Made by a program: the position numbers and the translations under genes. The notes under the pieces were generated by a model. It saw only the letters and a list, made by a program, of their open reading frames with translations. It did not search any database and had not been told where the DNA came from. From assembly GCA_036172245.1 (NCBI GenBank), contig JAYWIR010000141.1, forward strand, positions 49,361 through 69,360: 20,000 nucleotides of DNA, in the 5' to 3' direction. Source of the stretch: Raillietiella orientalis. Its lineage: Eukaryota. Shown here one piece after another: positions 5,640-20,000 of this stretch; the stretch's first letter is position 1, and each line of letters begins with the position of its first letter.

Positions 5640-6110
5640 ACGTGGTCTGCTGATAACACGCGCCTTCGGTCGCTGCTCATTTTGATGCGGAGGGTAGCGC
5701 GGTTTCCATGAATGTGCAGGGAGGACTCTCGTCTTTCGCACCTGCTGCAGTGGGTGTTTACCCTCTTACTGGACGAAACTTTCCGGCTGGCACCACATCG
5801 GAGACTTCCCTAAGACGCCGTCTGCAGCGTTGATTCCAGCCATTTAAGGAAGAGCGAGTCCCTTTCCGGAGACTCCACGGGCCGCACCAGCTCTTCCAGG
5901 AGGATCTTCAGGGAATTGAACCAGAGGAACATTCCTTCCTGTGGGATGCTTTGGATGGCAGCTGCCATCAGTGCCCCGCTGTCCTTCCATCTCGCGTTTT
6001 TCTCTCACCTGTGATTTCGCAGGAGGGAGGCGCTGGTATGCAGAGGCGCTTCACTTCCTTGTCCAACCACTGCGCGCACCTTCTCGTGCGCTCTGCGCGA
6101 AATCTGCGCG
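5640..6110 (-). mobile_element. LINE ORF2 C-terminal (zf-RVT) fragment
   Basis: Minus-strand CSRCERRESSLH at 5749-5714 matches CxxC..ES..H of zf-RVT. Confidence 0.55.
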
Positions 6111-7779: not shown

Positions 7780-8440
7780 AGTCTATGCGGCACCTTCTGT
7801 TTCCTGTTTGACGGGATGAACCCTGAAGATCGGATTTGTCACTTCTCCAAATTACCTGAGGCCGTCCCTTCTGTGCACCTCCTGAATCGCCGAACGCTGA
7901 CTGGTGCCCCTTCTTCGCGGTGGCAGAACTGCTTCTGTGCAACCGGCTTCTCCTGATGGAGCTGCAAGAGCTTCCGATCAACCCGTAGGTTCAGCTTGAA
8001 GTCAATATCTGGGCTCCATGGCGCAGGGTGCGACGAGTTCCGTCGACTCAGATCAGTCCTCTTTTCTGTACAAAGGTCCTCCTTGATCTTCCTGAGATTC
8101 TGAAGATTCCTAACCGAGTGGCAGGCAGGGACCACTGCTCGAACGGGGCACAACACGTGTGGGTTGGCGGGCGGAGCTCCGTTTGCTTTAAACCACAGCC
8201 TCAGCTGCTCTTACGGGGTGTTCTCTAGGCACAAGAGCAAATCCTCCTTACGTCTTCGTCCGACGACGGAGCGGTCTGCTGTCCACCAGCATTGTGATCT
8301 GCCCTTCGCTGCCACACATTTCGGGGGTAGACTCCTTCTTGCTCAAAGAGGCCAGCGCTCGTTCTGCTAGCGGCCCCAGTGCAAGAAGAGCAGCTCCGTA
8401 TGCTGCCAGCTGAGCAGAAGGTCTCAAAATCTCGCTAGGG
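7780..8440 (+). mobile_element. LINE ORF2 C-terminal fragment, truncated within the zf-RVT region
   Basis: 8374-8434 matches the reverse complement of 8985-9045 at 52/61 nt, which is the zf-RVT-like region of the neighbouring element. Left boundary uncertain. Confidence 0.45.
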
Positions 8441-8559: not shown

Positions 8560-10090
8560 CTTCGTCAGGTTCTTACTTAGCTTCCTAGGGACTCTCTGCT
8601 GAAGTGTTGGATAGGAAAGAGCGCTCCTGTACTGTTCCTCGGGACCACATGATACCTACGGACATCAGTGGCCGAAGAAAGATCAGCAGAATAAGCGAAG
8701 ACCTTTCTACAGGGAGGACAGTTGTCTTAGAAGACTCAGTCTGCCGATGCTGCGCGTGGAGGAAGAAAAAGAAAGCCAGCATCGTTCCAGAGGGTGTTGA
8801 ACGCGGAAGGGAATCCTTGTATAGTGCGCAGCTGTGATGCCATGACCACCCTCGCAAAGCGAAGCTGCAACTCATCGCGTCCTCTTCTCGAGGAGAGCAT
8901 CAGGATGCGGATCGGATCGGTGATGCCGAACCAGCAGGTCCCTCAGATGACCTTGGAACAGGAAGCACGACATTTAGCGGTGCTCGAGATTCTGGGAACA
9001 TCTGCTCAGCGGGTGGCATACGGAGCTACTCTTCTTGTACTGGGGTTACAAGCAGGTAGATCCAAGTGTAGTCAAGAGCTTCAAGAAGGGTTCTTGGCGA
9101 AACCCGCTTCTCAGGTCAACCGTTGGCCGCAAAGCACAATGGAAAGAAAGGGTCTTCAAATGAGTGCGCAAGTCAGTTCGAGGGAGGAGCAGAATCCCAT
9201 ACACTCTGCAGGGAGGTGGAAACCGTTGGGAGGATGGGGAAGTGGGTGATTCGCGCGGTCTTTCACAGTAAGCGCCGAGTAAGAAAATCTGCTGTCCTTC
9301 ATCGATAGGAGCTGTGACTAAATTTATGAGCTGTTTCAGCGTGGGTGACCCTTGCATATCATTGCACAACTGGTATTTCTTGGCCCTTTTTATTCCATGG
9401 ACTCGTCTTGGAGTTCGTATAGGGAGGAGAAATCCCCACCCCCTTGGAAGGTAGTCGCCCTGCTCACTACGGATGGGCGAGATCCCCGGTGACCTTTCCT
9501 TTACGCGGACGCCCAGGGGTCATATGAGGCTGACGACGTGTGCAGCACAGCGGATGACTGGGCTTTCATCAGAGTCCCTCGCGATGGAAGATGGTCGTCT
9601 GGATGCTTCCAGGTGTCGATGGAGACGCAACCTCGAATGAGTTTGTGATGCGGTATTCCGTGAAGGGAGTTAAGAAGGTTCGAATTCTAGGCTCGAGTCC
9701 CAGAAGAATTCGCGCCACAGTTCATTCCAGGAGCTCCGACGATTTCCGGTTGCGACGGAGGAGCGATCAACTAGGATGATGCCTTACGTAAGGATGAGCA
9801 GCTTCCAATAGGGATGGAGGAAAAAGAAGAAGAGGAGTTCTATCTCCAGGGCTTGCTGGAGATGAAGACGTCTGCATGGAAAGAACGCCTGACGTCTGCG
9901 TAGGTCGCGCATTCCTGCCGAGTCTTTCATAGTGCATGCTTGCGGCGCCGTCGCCATGGCGGATCCGTGCGTCGCGGGTAGAAAGACTTGTACTCCGCTT
10001 CCCGCCGCAGAGTGATTGCAGCGCGAGTCCGAGGTTGCTAGGTCCGCACCCGAGGGCGGTCATCGCAAAATCCTCACTCACCGTTAACTG
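8560..10090 (-). mobile_element. Decayed LINE ORF2 3' half
   Basis: In order on the minus strand: SVNGE, YADV (9902-9891, YADD-like), T*GIIL, LTPFTEYRITNSF, LPSKGVGI, SVCHPLSRCSQNLEHR*MSC (zf-RVT-like) and FNTLWNDAGFLF. Confidence 0.55.
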
Positions 10091-10109: not shown

Positions 10110-10660
10110 GTCCGCTGGCCCAGCAGTCCGGGTGGTCGGGCTGATCCCTTGCCTATCCCTGAGTCTCGTGAGCATGCCGGCACGAAGCCCGTCCACCGGT
10201 CTCCCGCGCTACACACCCGTCGCCACACACCCGTGTCGAGAGCAGCAGCGCTTCGCGCCTGCCTACGAGGAGCAAGAGTGAGTTCCAGTTGTGTGGCCTG
10301 AAACTCCACGGTGATGGCTGACTCTTTGATTCTGCCTTGCAGTAGGGTGATCGAAGCGTTAGGTTCATGTTGGCAGACTGACCAGTCATGGGTGCGCTCA
10401 ACAAATCGGCCAACGCTGCAGAAAGCTCTGCGTGTCGAGGTTGCGGCTCGAACGAGACGAGGGTACCACAGAATAAGCGCTGCCAGTGTCGATCATGTGG
10501 CTTATGGTTCAGAATGGGACGCAGTCCGTTGCCGGGCAAAGAACGGTGGGCAAGGTGGTGCGGGTGGGAAAGCACGATCGGCGGCGCTGTTGGGAAAGGT
10601 TGCAGGAAAACGCACGGTGAGCAGCGCAAAGGACACATAGGGTAAGGGCTGAGTGCCAGT
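10110..10660 (+). mobile_element. LINE ORF2 C-terminal (zf-RVT) fragment
   Basis: SACRGCGSNETR (first Cys at 10433), frameshifted to YHRIS, then RWARWCGW (W..W..R-like). Confidence 0.55.
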
Positions 10661-10699: not shown

Positions 10700-12950
10700 C
10701 TAGCATCGGCGGGCAGCAGGACGGTGGTGCAGGTGACACTTACGGAACTGCGGAATGACGAGGACGCCACGGCCTCTACGCCGCCGTTGTCGCTACTGGT
10801 GATGCCATCATCCGAGTTCATCGCTTTTTGCCACTCTCGTTGCAAGAGGCGATGACCGTATCCTAGGCGTTGCCTTCCTTGCCAGCGTTACCTGGCTCTT
10901 TCGTACACGCCTACTCTTTAGGGTCACCCTCGAAGGCGTCAGAAAAGGTCGGACAAGTCGCTAGAGATGCTTCTTTCCCAGCTCAGCAGAACGCGTTTCG
11001 TGGTAATGCCTTAAGGGCATATACGATGACCTCTCAGGTGGCTCTGGGCTGTCGACAGTTGTGCTCGACTTGTCGAGTGTCTGGGAGGAAACCAGAGTTG
11101 CTTTTGGTCACGCGACCTACGAAGACCAGGAAGGCGCCTTCCCGTCGTCAAGAGTGCCAACCGTGTGTCTCGCGCTCCGCTGAGGTTCCTGCGACGCGGG
11201 AGCTGCCAGGGAGCTCTGAATTTCTTCTTCATCCGGCCGGAGGGTTGGATGGAAGTTCGTTGGCAACAGGCCCGACTTCACCTTTCAAGGTGCGTCACCT
11301 GGGTTGGAAGGCATCGCCTGCTCGCATCTCAAAGCCACATGCGCACCATCCTCCATCTGCTGGATCTCTTTCTCGAGGTCGGATCCAACAGCTCCTTATC
11401 CTCTTCCTTCTACTTTCCCTCCCTTCTCTACCTTCTTTTCTCCTGATTAATGCTCCTTCCACCAGCAACGCAGCCTCCTCCTGGGATGGAAATCCAAGAG
11501 AAAGGCCTGCAGTCGGGAGGACGGGAGAAAAGAGTGAGGGAGCGGCCGGCGAAGGGAGCGACAGGATGGGAATTTTCTGTCGCAGTTTCGGTCCGCGTTT
11601 CAGGAGCAGATGGGAAGGGGCGAGAAGAAGCGAGCGAGGAACACGAAGAACTTGCTCTTTCTCCCTCCCTTCCCGAGAAGTGACCGGTAAACATTTCTTC
11701 CCCCATGAACCCTGACCGTGTAATTCCACCAGGATTGTAAGAAACTCCTGACTCTTCCCTTCAGGAAGAGGGGAGAGAAAGGTTGGGCTCACATGCCGGA
11801 GACGTGCCCGCCAAGCCTTGCATCTGAAGCTGCCCAGATATGCGAGGAGTCCACCTTCAGGATGCTGCACGTTCCGCCAAAAAGGTGAGCGGGATCCTCG
11901 GATAAGTTGTGACCCTTCTTGGTCAGTCTCTTGACGATCTCCTGGAGGATAGAAAGAAGAAGGTGGAAGGAAGTCCGCCGCGCGTCCTCGGGCAACACGC
12001 ACCTCCGCGGCAAAACCGCAAGAGCAAGCGCAGGGAGGAATCTTCTTCTTTCTTGTTTCCCGCCTCCTTCGGAAGCGGCCCCCGGACTCCTCTAAATGCA
12101 AGCGCGCAAGGAAGGGATGAAGAGAGTTTTTCTTCTTTTCCTCTCCCTTGCCGCCAGCTCCAGCTCCGGGAAGAGTCCTGGGAGTGCACGGCCGGCAGGA
12201 CGTTGGGGCTTCCTGGCGACCCCGCCCCCGAGCTGCGCGTGGGACGCGGAGGCGATCGTGCCAGGAGCGTTCGAGCATGCAGTCACGGTCCACAGCTTCC
12301 TCTCGTATCGCAGAGTGATGGGTTCCAGATGCTGACGGATCAGCGGAGTGTCGATGGCCTTCCTGCGAACCGTTCCGTAGCACATCCTCAAGATAGATTG
12401 CTGGAAGGAGGGTGCAGATAAATCACGAGCCGTTCCCGGAGGAGAGGTGCGCTCATGAGCAAGGAAGAGGATTCCGGGAAAAAGAACAGGACGGACGCTT
12501 TGGGGACATCTGGGAGAAAATCCCGTCCTACGCGTTTGCCGTGCGTTCGCCGTGGGCGATGCGCGAGGCACCGACGCGCGCGCTGCTACCGGCAGGTGGA
12601 GGGAGCTGAGGTCGCGCTCAAGGACTGCCGACCTCGTCCACCGGGTCGGTAGCAGCCCCCGGTCGACGCCCTCTTCGCTGCTCGAGCCATGAGCGGATAC
12701 TCGGCTGCTAGACGCGCGGTCTCTGAAGAGCTTCGTAACTCCCTCGTACCTCGGACATCTTTTACCTCTTGTGAGGCACCGTGCCACCTTACTCGCGGAC
12801 GGTCATCATGACCCCTTCGCCGCACGCAAACCGGCCCAGCTCCCAAGACATTTCCCGGTCCCCGTTCACTTATCTGTTCCGTGCTTGCATTTACAAGCGT
12901 TCTCCAAGGGTAGCGCAGCAGCCCATCTGACATGCCCTCCCCCTAGCACT
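10700..12950 (-). mobile_element. Decayed LINE: ORF1 remnant, ORF2 linker and RT N-terminus (possibly composite)
   Basis: YGTVRRK and PTSCRPC followed by a basic tail (ORF1-like); EGALIRRK (~11450, linker); EEIQSSLA and RKSQVTLARK (pre-RT and RT domain 1-like). Confidence 0.4.
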
Positions 12951-13920: not shown

Positions 13921-14152
13921 CTGGGCCACGTCCGCGATGCTCTCAGTCCCTGCGGAGGAGGCCGCTACGAATCGAACCTCCCCTTCGCCGTCCACGTACA
14001 CTACCGGGCAAGCAGAAGACAAAGGTCGCTTTCCCGGAGCCATGTAGTTATTGGGACTCGGGGAGTAGCTCCTGTTCCCCAGGGCATCCGAGAAGGTCAG
14101 CATCGTGCTGCTCAGCAATATCCCGGTGGAGGGGGAGTACCATATCTTGCCC
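13921..14152 (-). pseudogene. ggt: Gamma-glutamyltranspeptidase (GGT)-like small-subunit exon, main part
   Basis: Open frame GKIWYSPSTGILLSSTMLTFS...SPSPNNYMAPGKRPLSSACPVVYVDGEGEVRFVAASSAGTESIADVAQ matches the GGT signature (SP.TGI..N.M..FS...SP.N.I.PGKRPLSS.CP). It ends at a CAG|GTGCGT donor. Confidence 0.9.
14139..14152 (+). repeat. Target-site duplication, left copy (ACCATATCTTGCCC)
   Basis: Identical to 15287-15300. Confidence 0.9.
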
Positions 14153-15286
14153 CCTGGCTCCAAGATTCCGTTTGCGGATGGGCTATATTCAACGGCTCCA
14201 GCGATGAAGTCTTCTCCTGCCTCCGTAGAGGCAGGCAGGCTGGTCAGCCACTGCAGGAGATCGTCAGCAGCCCACGGAAGCTTCTCTGGGCCTCCTTTAC
14301 TCCCCTTGCCCCAATGCTGCCCTCCCTCATGGAAGTTCGGGACAGCCAGCAGGAGGCATCTTGGGAAGTGTCCTGCCTCATCGGAGGCAGGAAAAAATTA
14401 TTGAAGGCGTGGACGTCCCGGGAACTAGCGGACGCTAGTACCCCGAGTGTCCCGCTGAATGGACTTTCATGCTGGGACGCGCTGCTCGAAGTACCTCCGA
14501 AGGAGGTGAAGTGGCCCCCGGCCTCGTGGGTTAACGGTACCCTTCCCCTGCAGTGGCAGGAGACGGCGTTGCTTCTGCTCCATTGGGGACTGTTAAGATG
14601 AGGGCGCTTGTCTCACTGGACACCGGGGAGTGTGCATGCTAATTGCCCAGACTGTGGGGAAAGAGAAACCTTTCCTCACTTAATCATTGAGTGCGTTGCC
14701 CTTCGCGATATGTGGGACCGACTCTCGTCGATCTTGAACATTCCGCGGGGCGACCCGAAAAACATTTTTCGACTCCTGATGCGGGACGCCTTGCCAGCTT
14801 CCGGGTGTGTAGCAGTGCTATGTTGCATACGCGGAATACTGGAATAGTGGACCGCGTCAAGGAGAGGACATGCCAGTCGGAATGGCATCCACTGGGCAAC
14901 CATCTCCTTGTAGAAGGCCTGCCGTTGGCGCCGACTTGTAAAACACTCACAGGCACTCGTCCGCATCCGTGACAGGATGCAGAGGTTTCCTCACGGCGTA
15001 CCGTGATTCCTTCCCTTCCCTCCCCCTCCCGAAGAACATTGCCCCCCCAGCGTTTTCTTTTTTTTGTTCATTTTTGGTTTTCCCGCCCCTTCGCCAGTGT
15101 AGAGGACCTTATCGGCCTTCGGGTCGGTAAGGACAAGTGCCTCAAGACATTCGGGCCATATGTCCCGACTGAAAAACAAGAACAACAACAACAACAAAAA
15201 AAACAAATCAGGACTTTATTATGAAATTTTTTTTGTGTATTTTGAAAAATTTTTGTAATAAAAGCTCCGGCTCACCCGGGTGAAAA
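14153..15286 (+). mobile_element. 5'-truncated L1/Tx1-type LINE insertion (1134 bp), comparatively young
   Basis: zf-RVT CPDCGERETFPHLIIEC at 14644-14694. The frame is interrupted only by TGA at 14599 and TAG at 14845. It has a 3' UTR, AATAAA at 15257, a short A-tail and perfect flanking 14-bp direct repeats. Confidence 0.9.
15172..15207 (+). repeat. A-rich / (CAA)n microsatellite inside the LINE 3' UTR
   Basis: aaaaacaagaacaacaacaacaacaaaaaaaacaaa. Confidence 0.8.
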
Positions 15287-15300
15287 ACCATATCTTGCCC
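15287..15300 (+). repeat. Target-site duplication, right copy (ACCATATCTTGCCC)
   Basis: Identical to 14139-14152 and directly follows the A-tail. Confidence 0.9.
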
Positions 15301-15303
15301 GGT
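15287..15303 (-). pseudogene. ggt: 5' stub of the same GGT-like exon, with its splice acceptor
   Basis: Minus strand reads ccttccttttccAG|A CCG GGC AAG ATA TGG T, and joins in frame with 14152-13921 through the duplicated 14-mer. Confidence 0.85.
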
Positions 15304-15499
15304 CTGGAAAAGGAAGGCTGGCAGGCGGACGAGGATGAGCACGGAAATGACTGGGGTTTTCTCTACGCCCTCCCTTCGTGAACTTCCTGTCTGCCGATTA
15401 GGAAGGGGAAGGAAAGGGATTAATGGGAGGCTGGATGGCTGGCCGAGGGGAGTTTTGAACTGGCAAGTATTGCGGCTCCGCACGCGTCCTCGCCTACGA

Positions 15500-16132
15500 T
15501 ATTGCCCGTGCACAAGGCAGGACAAGCGGGAATCTCTAGACGTCTCCACCGGCCGGGGGAGAGGGGATTGGGAAAGGACCGCGGCCCGAAAGCAATGCTG
15601 GATGACAGAGGGGGAGCAAGAGAATTCTCAGGAAGAGGGAGGGCGGGAGCACCAGCGCCTGCTCCGTAAGTCGGCACTTCTGGCCTCGGTTCGCTCTGGC
15701 TGCACGGTGCTGGAGCGCTCCGGACGCATCTGGGGGGAAGAAGAGGATCGGGCGCTTATTTTCAGCGCGCGAACGTTGGTGTGGAAAAGAATAGCTCTGC
15801 GATTCCCGAGTCTGGATGCGCGGGTTTGGCCTGGTTGGAGCTCGATCCCGAGACGGAGTCACTATAGGGAGCCAAGGGCGTGCACGGAGCACGCCACGTG
15901 TCAAAGAGTGAGCTCCCAAGGAAGGATTTCCTTCCTCCGCTCCTCCTTCCTTCGCGGCAGAGTTCTGTGCCTTTTTTCCCGGTCTCGTGGGACGTCCCGT
16001 TGGCGCTACGGAAGCACCCATCGAACACCACTCACCACCTTAGTCTCTCTTCTCGCTCTCTCTCCGGGGGCGACCCTCGAGGTGCCCTGTGCGCATTTCT
16101 GGCAGATGGGGAGTCTCTCGGCTCTGATGAGG
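15500..16132 (+). mobile_element. Host LINE, left part (ORF2 linker to pre-RT)
   Basis: ALLASVRSGCTVLER (linker) and LSPG...AHFWQ (KSPG.DG..FW-like). It continues in frame at 17437 after the nested insertion. Left boundary uncertain. Confidence 0.6.
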
Positions 16133-17421
16133 TTTGAACCGGTTACCGCGGGACATTTATTTTGAGAAACAAACGACAAACTTGAAGGAATATGCATCCT
16201 TTCAAGACACAAGAAACGCTCATACCAAAGGTGAAACAGGGAAAACCACCGGCACGCGGACCGGCTTCAAGAAAGAAGGAAACGGAGGGAAAGGGCATGA
16301 AATAGACAAAAAAATAAAGTAGGGTGGGGACAGGGATCTTTGATAGCGAACGTTCTTCTTCTTCTAGAAGCGCTGCTTGACGATGGCGACTTTCCTGGTG
16401 ACAATTTTTTGCGGCAGATGAGGCTACCTTGCAGCTACCTTCGTAAGGTTGGCGGCTATCCTGGTAGCGTCCTTTCGCTGCAAACTTCCTTCGAGGTCAC
16501 GGCGGGCCGTCACGATGGCGCGGATGAAGCAGATTGCTGCGATCACAGCGCCTTCTTTAAGTGCGCCTTCGCTGAATAAGTATCGCAGCAGGTTGAATGC
16601 AGTGTCCTGGGGACGACGAAGTGCCGGAACAAGTCTCCGCCATAACACCTGGAGGTCACAAGAAGGTGCGGAAGCGATTCCATCGCCCTGAACCTGCGAC
16701 AGTTTGGGGAGGCAACTCCCCCAGACACCAACTGTCTGCGCTAATTGCACTGGAATCCTCAGTGCAGGAATGGCCGAACATCCTGTTTCCATCGAAGCGG
16801 CAACACCGAGGTCTCCATGCAGAGAGAGAAGGTACCACGCGTTCTTCGGGGGTGCACTGAGAAGTTCACTCCACCACAGGAGTCCCTTTGCCCGGTGACG
16901 AGGAGTGGCAGCATCCACCAGCACGCTCGTTTTGCAGCCGTTTGCAGACTCCTGCAATGCTGCAGGAGAACTCCCGCCCTGCAGTTCGGCTAATGTCGCT
17001 GTTTGCCCTGAGGGCAGACAGCGCTGCGGCCGGGGGTGAGACGGCAACCGGGACCAAAGCGACCAGTCCTGAAGGATAACTCCAAGTGGTTTGCATAGGA
17101 GACCTTGTAGAGGTCGCAGTTGCTCTGAACGCTCATCCAAAGTGGAAGTCCAGTGCTCCAGAGCTTCCTGCCGCCAGGCATTCTAGTTCGTGGGGCGGCA
17201 GGAGATCCAGGGATGGGCTAACAACAACGAGGACAGATGCCTCACAGGGTAACCAAATCCAGTCCTGCGGATGAGGCTGCACAGCAGCAAGGAAAGAAGT
17301 CCTGCACTGCCGACGCATCGCTGGAGGATATGGCGAGCCGGAGCACACCAGTGACTAGACCACCATTTCCCACATAGGAAGAGAAGCCGGAACTGAACCT
17401 GCAGTCTGATCTTCTAGATGA
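16133..17421 (-). mobile_element. 5'-truncated LINE nested antisense in a related LINE
   Basis: SPNCRRFRAMESLPHLL (zf-RVT) and GAVIAAICFIRAIVTAR. AATAAA at 16161-16156 and an A-tail at 16135-16133. Flanked by a 12/15 direct repeat (16118-16132 and 17422-17436). Confidence 0.8.
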
Positions 17422-18853
17422 TCGTCGCTGATGAAGGAGACTGGAGATGTCCCTTCTCCCTTACGCTCAGCAAAGGTGAGCCTCATGCCGAAAGGCGGAG
17501 ACGCACTATCGGGGACCTGCAAGGTCCAGGATCCGCCTCAAGGATTTGGCGGCTCCTCGGCGGGATGCCGGCTTGGGCATCTTGACGCTGGAGCGGATCG
17601 GACTGTATGTGCAGTTCCTAATGTACCCAGCTTTGGACGACTCCACGGTGTGCTCCCGCGCGGTTGCTGCTGCGACGCTGCGAGGGTGGCGACGGACTGC
17701 TTTCGTTGTTCCCACATACGGAGCGCGCCATGAGAGGATCCGGCTTCCCGCTGAGGCAACTCGCCTCGATCCTAGAAGCGCATTCGTGGATCTCCTGCCG
17801 GTCGACGAACTTTAACTCTTGGAGGCAGGAAGCTTGATCGTCCTGGGCAAGGCAACAGGATGTGTCCCGTTTGGAACTCTGTTGCGTGGACCTTTCTCCA
17901 TACTGTCTAGTGGAAGAGGTGTTCAGAATTAGGACAAGTGGACTCGCCTGGCCGTTACACCCCTCGCCGAAGCGCTGTCTGCCCTAAAGGCAAGAAAACA
18001 CGGTTGTCTACAGGCAAGGTGGCAGGTCGCCTGCGCTATCGCTGGCGAAACCCGACCTCTGGGCGGTTGGAGGACCTGCGAGCTGGCAGACGCTGCCACG
18101 CCCCGCATTCGAGCCAAGGGACTAATCCGGAGTAGCGAGCTCCTTGTGGTGCCCCCCGAAGAACTTGTGGTCCCTTTCCCTGTTTGCACGCGACTGTGTT
18201 CCCCCTTCGGTGGAACAGGACGCTTTTCTGCTGGTGCATTGAGGTCTGTATTGCAACCAGCGCGCGCACCTGGTGTCCAGGGGTGTCTTTGGTCCCCGAA
18301 CTGTGGAAGGTGCGGAGCAGTGGAATCGCTCCCGCATTTGCTATTCGACTGCTGTGCCCTCCAGAAACTGCAGCAGAGACTGTCTTCAGCGCTCCTGCAT
18401 CCGGAGGGAATCGCAATGGACTGGATGCGTTGCTTCTTCACGCGTGGCGGCCTACCGCTTGGCGCGGTCATCGCGACCATCTGTTGCGTCCGCGCTATTG
18501 TCAGGGGCCGCCACGTCTTGGAGCTGCAAGCGTTCCCAGCAGCGATCTCGACAGTGCAGCCTGCAATCTGGGCATGGCTGCCGGATGGCCACACATCGAC
18601 GAAGAAGTGAGGAAGGAGATCTCCACCATTCAACGACGGTTCTGAGAAAAGGAAAGACCGAAGCTGCAGATCTCTGTTCTACGCACCCACTATTTTATTT
18701 ATTTATCGCCCCCTCCCTACCATTTCTCACTCTCAGTATGCCCGATCTGTGTGTCGCGAAACCCTCCCCCTTATCTTCTGTTCCCCTTCCCTGGGAACTA
18801 TGTTCCAAGATGATTTCCTTTCAATAAACGTACCGCCGATACCGGATAAGAAA
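17422..18853 (+). mobile_element. Host LINE, right part (start of RT domain 1, deletion, post-RT, zf-RVT, 3' UTR)
   Basis: ETGDVPSPLRSAKVSLMPKGGD, then immediately RIRLKDLAAPRRDAGLGI; NCGRCGAVESLPHLLFDC (~18300-18350); AATAAA at 18823. Confidence 0.85.
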
Positions 18854-18854
18854 C

Positions 18855-19900
18855 GACAACGCTGCGGCTCTTGATTACCTCGCTACGCGGCGGATTCTCG
18901 CTGCGATGGGAGACTTTTTTAGCTTCATGCTTTTGCTTTTTGGTTTTTTTCCATGTAACCACCTGCCATCTAGGCTCCTGGCCGTTTTCCTCGATCTTTT
19001 CGGCGTTGTCCGCCGGGGTCTCGTATGCGGCCTGAGCTTCAAGCGGGTGGGACATCTTTCGCTGCAGCTTTCGCCGCACGCTTTTTTTCCAGTTGTTTCT
19101 CACGCTTTTTTGCGCTTCTCGCAGACGCGACGCGAACTGTTGCCTTTGAGCACACCTCACGGGTGTGGGCCATTAGGCCACATATTTGGCACTGCACGTT
19201 TGGGCACCTTTTTTTGAGATGGTCGGACATATTGCAGAAGCCACAGTATTTGGGCTTTCCCACATACCATAGGTCGACCGATTCACCGGTGACCACAAAT
19301 TTGTGATGAAACCCACAGCCCTCACGGACGGTGAACGCGTCGCCTCGAGGCCGCACTGTAGTCCAGCCTAATCCACAAAGGGAGAAGGCTTGGACCACAG
19401 AGCGTGCACCGTGCCGTATTGTCCCAGCGCGGCACGGAGGGCTTCCGTCCGCATCCGCGCGGTTATACCTAATAGGTGGACCACAGTGCTGCGGCCCACC
19501 GAAATAGGAAGAAGCCTGCGCTTCTCCATAGTAACATGGGTTTTCAGCAACCGTTGAGTCAGATTTGCCTGTTCGCAGATGACTGCCGATGATGAGCAGA
19601 TCACTGCTCCGATGGTCATCGGGCAGAGTTCTTCCTCCAGCACGTTGAGAGCGCCCATCGCCTTCCCAAAGTCGTGTGCGCTCTCCGGAGAGTACAGATT
19701 GCCTACCTTTTATAACAAGAAAAGGTTGTACCCCTCCTCCACGACGGCATTGAATTCCGCAGGCGTAGGTGCCGCTGCCACGGCGCTCTATACCCACGCT
19801 GCAGCGGGGACCGATTCTGTGGGGAGGATGCCTCCTACCTTCATCGCCTCTGGGAAAGACGTGGCCGTCGCCCCCTGGCACTCACTGGTGTGTCTGGCAT
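18855..19900 (-). mobile_element. Tx1-type ORF1 (RRM-like region plus two CCHC zinc knuckles), disrupted
   Basis: EALRAALGQYGTV; CGFCNMSDHLKKRC (19245-19204) and CQICGLMAHTREVC (19191-19150); Lys-rich tail. Upstream stops and a frameshift near 19370-19320. Confidence 0.8.
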
Positions 19901-20000
19901 TGCTGCCTGATCGACCACCGAACTCCACGCACTTAAGGAAAGGCTCCCGGCACCAAGGAGCACTAAGAAAACACGACCATCCGGTGCGCTCAAAGCGTAC

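Follow-up and report, generated by a model that had tools for sequence, protein, structure and literature searches.

The 20,000-nucleotide stretch of Raillietiella orientalis DNA analysed here (contig JAYWIR010000141.1, positions 49,361 to 69,360; hereafter, the window) contains the last third of a glutathione-hydrolase-like gene of the GGT family on its minus strand, in which exon A is interrupted by the 3' end of a LINE. Judging from the DNA, the insertion probably knocked out an old and divergent GGT paralogue, and it is the first clear disabling lesion in the visible part of the gene. The features on which this reading is based are collected in Table 1.

Table 1. Features of the interrupted GGT gene, the LINE insert, and the surrounding LINE fragments (positions in the window).
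Feature	Position	Strand	Remark
Polypyrimidine tract and CAG splice acceptor of exon A	15304..15325	-	14/17 pyrimidines
First 3 nt of exon A, cut off beyond the insertion	15301..15303	-	
Target-site duplication, right copy	15287..15300	.	Directly after the LINE A-run
LINE 3' terminus: AATAAA, ~20 nt, four A	15257..15286	+	
Cryptic splice donor in antisense LINE end, 28 nt past the natural acceptor	15270..15278	-	7/9 consensus
Gene-sense AATAAA and U/GU-rich tract ending in a CAG acceptor	15168..15220	-	Candidate signals
5'-truncated LINE 3' end, 1134 nt, antisense to the GGT gene	14153..15286	+	
ORF2 C-terminal remnant, 283 codons, single frame, 3 premature stops	14155..15006	+	
Target-site duplication, left copy	14139..14152	.	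Exact repeat
Rest of exon A (light chain, human GGT1 residues ~405-483), open	13921..14152	-	Donor GT 13920-13919
GGT exon B, 114 nt, 38 open codons, phase 0-0	12287..12400	-	BLAST, HMM, tblastn
GGT terminal exon C, 50 codons and TGA	11789..11941	-	BLAST, HMM, tblastn
5'-truncated LINE 3' end, upstream intron	16132-17480	-	Head to head with 17480-18855
5'-truncated LINE 3' end, upstream intron	17480-18855	+	Head to head with 16132-17480
Decayed ORF1-like frame, two CCHC knuckles	18860-20000	-	Cut off by plus-strand LINE end near 18855
zf-RVT-region fragments	8373-8434 (-), 8985-9055 (+), 5792-5980 (-)		Match the insert or each other
zf-RVT-region fragment	~10440-10500	-	By eye only

The LINE insert and its target-site duplication

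Two copies of a 14-nt direct repeat, identical at 14/14 positions, are separated by 1134 nt, and the right copy begins immediately past the A-run that follows the AATAAA at 15257. A 14-mer repeat alone is not proof, because the window holds three exact 14-mer repeats in total; its position is what counts. When seven AATAAA sites were scanned on both strands, a flanking repeat longer than 10 nt was found only at the 15257 site. None of 1986 random start positions showed an exact match of at least 12 nt inside the 6 kb upstream. The 14-nt repeat is a real target-site duplication. A previous reading of the window, made from the sequence only, had described a perfect 14-bp duplication around a 1134-bp LINE 3' fragment, and the exact copies and their placement at the LINE A-run bear this out. 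The same reading had listed the duplication, the 5' truncation, and an A-tail as hallmarks of target-primed reverse transcription; the first two stand, and the A-tail is present but merely 4 nt long, or 5 nt if the first base of the repeat is counted. The nick context is TGGT/AC and differs from TTTT/AA, the target of the mammalian-type L1 endonuclease.

Insertion of a LINE into a host exon by target-primed reverse transcription is the best reading of this structure and is supported by it. Going by established L1 biology, an L1/Tx1-type LINE would have been copied into the genome by this mechanism, with the first nick placed 17 nt into exon A of the GGT-family gene. Reverse transcription would have broken off at 1.1 kb, with the 14-bp duplication arising from a second, staggered nick.

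The ORF2-like frame of the insert opens at the left copy of the duplication, with the 5' truncation falling within ORF2, and no frameshift was visible in its 283 codons. RT and endonuclease domains are absent, so the insert is a 5'-truncated LINE 3' end whose clade assignment is putative. The ORF2 remnant matched zf-RVT (PF13966) with an E value of 4.6e-4 and 21.2 bits, below the cut-off of 27.5, and 110 residues of the insert align with the LINE fragment at 17957-18409 at 41-49% identity. The putative L1/Tx1 label of the insert rests on this zinc-finger remnant (zf-RVT-like CCHC) and is not proven. For 22 nt of the LINE 3' end, an exact search of metagenome and viral contigs gave 0 matches. 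Homology searches returned nothing at an E value of 0.001, either with the ORF2 remnant of the insert (557 candidates) or with the ORF of a neighbouring LINE (8000 candidates), and no second copy at the same target sequence was found in the window or in the two collections of metagenome and viral contigs. The insert could be an off-target copy of a target-specific L1/Tx1-like LINE family. Just ahead of its A-tail lies a 12-bp perfect palindrome (15271-15282), possibly a 3'-end recognition hairpin, for which the predicted fold reaches only -6 kcal/mol.

The GGT exons sit in a LINE graveyard. In the intron upstream of exon A, two head-to-head LINE ends are 66% identical over 396 nt, and each ends in AATAAA, about 22 nt, and AAA; at 18823 (+) and 16161 (-) their termini have the same layout as that of the insert. 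No convincing target-site duplication was found for either of them. Twin priming was rejected for this pair (16300-18860), because both pieces cover a single ORF2 region, in which their DNA is 66% identical. Near 18855, a LINE was apparently inserted into another LINE, whose decayed ORF1-like frame is cut off there. Pfam searches in 10 frames of the neighbouring LINE fragments found no RT or EN family; the few weak matches were below the cut-off and were treated as chance.

With its perfect duplication and intact exons, the locus resembles a young, unfixed insertion. It might thus be a polymorphic or haplotype-specific allele, or even an assembly join, with most of the population carrying an empty, working site. 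We regard this as very improbable. With three stops and a 4-nt tail, the insert looks old or derived from a defective source, and an assembly join would not yield a target-site duplication at the exact LINE boundaries.

Exon-intron structure of the GGT gene

Three bases of exon A lie outside the right repeat copy, next to an acceptor (AG 15305-15304) with 14 pyrimidines in 17 positions, a level attained by 2% of the 1469 minus-strand AGs. On the far side of the insert, the left repeat copy and a further 218 nt extend to 13921 and are followed by the donor CAG/GTGCGT, which matches the consensus at 8/9 positions. The parts add up to 235 nt, in agreement with the exon that had been rebuilt between an acceptor and a GTGCGT donor by removing the insert and one repeat. 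Its 77 codons from 14151 to 13921 are open. The exon A peptide matched the Pfam family G_glu_transpept (PF01019) with an E value of 4.8e-12 and 45.9 bits, over the curated cut-off of 27, so the profile check proposed for the rebuilt peptide returned a GGT match; against the human GGT1 light chain the E value was 2.7e-11.

At the DNA level, both exon A boundaries coincide with introns of unrelated GGT genes. Among 80 fetched loci, 10 that were top matches or looked spliced were read at this level. At the acceptor position, seven of the 10 showed AG, one nucleotide, and Phe-Gly, with the same phase and position as in exon A, two had no intron there, and one gave no usable reading; the proposal that homologous GGT exons should start at this acceptor was thus upheld in 7/10 loci. 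At the donor position, four loci had an intron at the same codon as exon A, two were continuous, two differed, and two gave no read-out. A related signal was found in the proteins. In the alignment of 175 GGT relatives, 135 had the first Gly and sufficient upstream sequence. Ser or Arg stands two places ahead of this Gly in 38 of the 44 proteins that lack the upstream-exon motif, and in 1 of the 91 continuous ones. Ser or Arg is encoded by AG plus one base.

Exon A had been considered the only non-transposon coding sequence visible in the window. This did not hold, since two more GGT exons, B and C, lie downstream of it at 12400-12287 and 11941-11789. They were located by tblastn with full-length GGTs and with an HMM built from 18 of these. 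The HMM matches were weak and colinear (E values of 1.2 for exon B and 0.035 for exon C), and the best BLAST E values against the 175 GGTs were 3e-4 and 2e-6, respectively; neither exon taken alone gave a Pfam match. The acceptor of exon B has 14/17 pyrimidines and its donor matches the consensus at 6/9 positions, while the acceptor of exon C has 16/17 pyrimidines. Both exons are open and in phase 0, their spacing relative to the homologues shows no net indel, and the TGA of exon C falls where GGT proteins end. The end point of exon B is at the same residue as that of an exon in one GGT locus (L019); another locus (L004) has no intron there. For the start of exon B (12400-12359, minus strand), two alignments to GGTs are possible, one free of gaps and the other with an insertion and a deletion of one residue each. 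This start contains a 4-nt tandem repeat, and its net length equals that of the homologues; compensating indels are possible at this site.

Over their 165 codons, the three exons show no stop or frameshift, and all five splice sites are intact. Their GC3 is 0.70-0.75, compared with an exon GC of 0.55-0.61. Because exons B and C are open, in phase, and closed by a normal stop, nothing but the insertion breaks the frame in the last third of the gene. HMM and tblastn searches of 15304-20000 (4.7 kb, filled with LINEs) found no upstream GGT exons. Within 1.5 kb past the GGT stop (11788-10288, minus strand), neither AATAAA, ATTAAA, nor any of seven other hexamer variants was present. The only variant seen in this interval is AAGAAA, at 11699 and 11226.

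Divergence of the gene and the order of events

Residues were numbered through alignment to 4GG2_B, with the chain start taken as Thr381. The match to the human GGT1 light chain (PDB 4GG2_B and 4GDX_B) spans 67 residues and retains Ser451, Ser452, and Gly474. In contrast, Glu420, Asp423, and Gly473 of human GGT1 are replaced by Thr, Thr, and Ala, so that the oxyanion pair Gly473-Gly474 reads Ala-Gly. According to the cited part of PMC7949050, Glu420 and Asp423 bind the glutamate amino group, Gly473-Gly474 forms the oxyanion hole, and mutation of Asp423 leads to loss of activity. The GGT small-subunit signature ascribed to exon A by the sequence-only reading is therefore confirmed as a family match, by Pfam and by the human light chain, but not as a canonical active site. 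Gly473 is absent in 3 of the 175 aligned relatives, two of which are poorly aligned. Thr381 (the nucleophile), Asn401, and Arg107 are encoded by exons outside the window.

Of 28 columns conserved in at least 80% of the relatives, seven are changed in this gene; that many changes are found in 7 of 165 relatives, in some of them through misalignment. Three of the seven changes require two or three base changes, with Asp to Leu and Asp to Thr among these multi-base replacements, and four are single-base changes. The closest relative is at most 55% identical. Identity to proteins auto-named scoloptoxin SSD14-like is 39%, below that to ordinary GGTs (up to 55%). In a FastTree tree of 77 columns and 172 rows, from which four poorly aligned rows were omitted, the terminal branch of this gene is the longest of all (0.76, where the median is 0.21). 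The gene groups as sister to a divergent GGT of Amblyomma americanum (P0142), with a support of 0.93 and an identity of only 39%, and this grouping may reflect long-branch attraction. A tick origin was not accepted despite the support in the 77-column tree, given the low identity and the length of both branches. Asp423 is missing from P0142 and from two further relatives (P0113 and P0114), and another (P0046) has an altered glycine loop. Judging from these proteins, a non-canonical active site seems to occur repeatedly among GGT paralogues.

Neutral decay to 12% per site was simulated in 1000 runs. As no frameshift is visible in the insert, the indel term of the simulation, at 10% of substitutions, was left out of account. 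No stop arose in 15% of the runs, and all 10 splice bases stayed intact in 28%, giving a joint p of about 0.04 under neutral decay with no indel term. The gene is probably an old divergent paralogue, not a freshly decayed enzyme; selection that kept the frame of an old paralogue open accounts better for the data than the decay of a standard enzyme. By the time it was hit, the gene would already have been without the residues that bind the amino group of glutamate, yet would have kept its open frame and all splice sites; the four single-base changes could postdate its death. A divergent GGT type with an altered glutamate pocket points to GGT-like proteins, as yet unstudied, that act on another substrate or have no catalysis.

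The gene could also have been non-functional already, as a pseudogene or a partial DNA-level duplicate in a nest of LINEs, in which case the LINE hit dead sequence. The missing poly(A) signal and the absence of an upstream exon from the LINE-filled 4.7 kb fit a gene already dead or partial. The upstream intron holds two more LINE ends, one of them in gene sense with its own AATAAA at 16161, and the loss of active-site residues and the longest terminal branch of the 172 rows count on the same side. However, we consider death before the insertion unlikely, given 165 codons with no stop or frameshift, five intact splice sites, and a coding-type GC3. Multi-base replacements need long divergence, during which neutral decay rarely spares stops (the joint p above), and Asp423 is absent in other members of the GGT family as well.

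Death by insertion also has to be weighed against the distribution of stops, with three in the LINE and none in the exons. Supposing that the LINE acquired its stops after insertion, its decay amounts to about 8%. The exons and splice sites should then have collected 1.3-2.3 disabling changes, yet they show none. All three events would land in the LINE with a probability of 0.18-0.33, which is not significant; this becomes 0.07 when the identity of the duplication is counted, a figure biased by the way in which the site was discovered. The asymmetry is therefore awkward for death by insertion but not significant, and at p values of 0.18-0.33 it does not settle the order of events. The three LINE stops may have come from a defective source.

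Predicted transcript effects and comparison with known systems

A reading from the natural acceptor runs into a stop after 27 codons. The candidate cryptic donor at 15270-15278 matches 7/9 consensus positions, a level attained by 4% of the 995 minus-strand GTs. Farther along, the tract after the AATAAA at 15220 is 72% T over 36 nt, a content attained by 0.04% of minus-strand 36-mers, and a strong candidate acceptor in gene sense lies at 15168. A transcript spliced at the natural acceptor would meet the stop, the strong cryptic donor, and the AATAAA with its GU-rich tract. Skipping of exon A would shift the frame, since the exon is 235 nt long. Because of the read-through stop, the frame shift upon skipping, and the poly(A) signal borne by the insert, the insertion allele is predicted to be most likely null.

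The gene might nevertheless have survived if most of the LINE were spliced out through cryptic sites, leaving a light chain with a short LINE-derived insert and exons still under selection. The clean exons beside an insert with three stops would suit such a rescue, as would the good donor 28 nt into the broken exon. In addition, the antisense LINE is open in the GGT frame for 82 codons ahead of the left duplication copy, and 14 of the 24 AGs in this stretch are in a usable phase. However, the stop asymmetry is not significant, and an open run of this length occurs by chance at 14% of positions. The in-frame cryptic acceptors are present but weak: of the 14 in-phase AGs, just 4 are YAG, with pyrimidines at 6-11 of the 17 preceding positions (14-16 for the natural acceptors), and the AG adjoining the duplication lies out of frame. 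The AATAAA, the GU-rich tract, and the strong decoy acceptor all come earlier in the transcript. Precise splicing-out through the duplication was rejected, as the repeat contains no AG/GT. We therefore find survival of the gene improbable. An extended version of this idea appears slightly more doubtful still. In it, a non-catalytic GGT-like gene tolerated the 1.1-kb exonic LINE by recruiting antisense splice sites; most of the insert would have turned into a new intron, with selection still acting on the exons as the LINE gained three stops. If true, it would be an intron gain from a LINE caught in the act in an uncharacterised arthropod GGT pseudo-enzyme, and RNA evidence of splice rescue would raise the importance of the case.

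Taken as death by insertion, the locus is a clean but ordinary example of how retrotransposons break genes, which is well known. As a null allele, it would neatly record both the loss of a gene and the activity of LINEs in this genome, in a form that can be dated. The literature searched contained no account of the locus.

Altered GGT paralogues have counterparts among arthropods. The Amblyomma americanum protein P0142 likewise lacks the acids at Glu420 and Asp423, although it is only 39% identical to the gene described here. The third venom gamma-GT of Aphidius ervi, as presented in the cited part of PMC4516919, is an arthropod paralogue with an altered active site and is probably inactive. 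On the side of the retroelement, the insert resembles L1-group or Tx1-type LINEs with a C-terminal zf-RVT in its zf-RVT-like CCHC remnant, its 5' truncation, and its target-site duplication. Unlike full L1/Tx1 LINEs, this copy has no RT or endonuclease domain, and no public relative of it was found.

The closest parallels to the event itself are the exonic L1 and Alu insertions in human NF1, as far as these are covered by the cited part of PMC3219598. There, as here, a retroelement lies in a coding exon, antisense cases are common, and the target-site duplications measure 7-20 bp, a range that includes the 14 bp found here. The NF1 insertions differ in having long poly(A) tails and nicks that fit the TTTT/AA consensus, compared with four A and TGGT/AC in the present case. 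All such NF1 insertions changed splicing, with exon skipping in 6 of 13 exonic cases or the use of cryptic sites as the dominant outcomes. The host gene here is an invertebrate GGT paralogue, unlike human NF1, and the effect of the insertion is predicted from the DNA. Antisense splice sites in L1 are documented in the cited part of PMC2176070, in which the antisense strand of mouse L1 carries splice and poly(A) signals, and the antisense strand of the insert shows similar splice-like signals.
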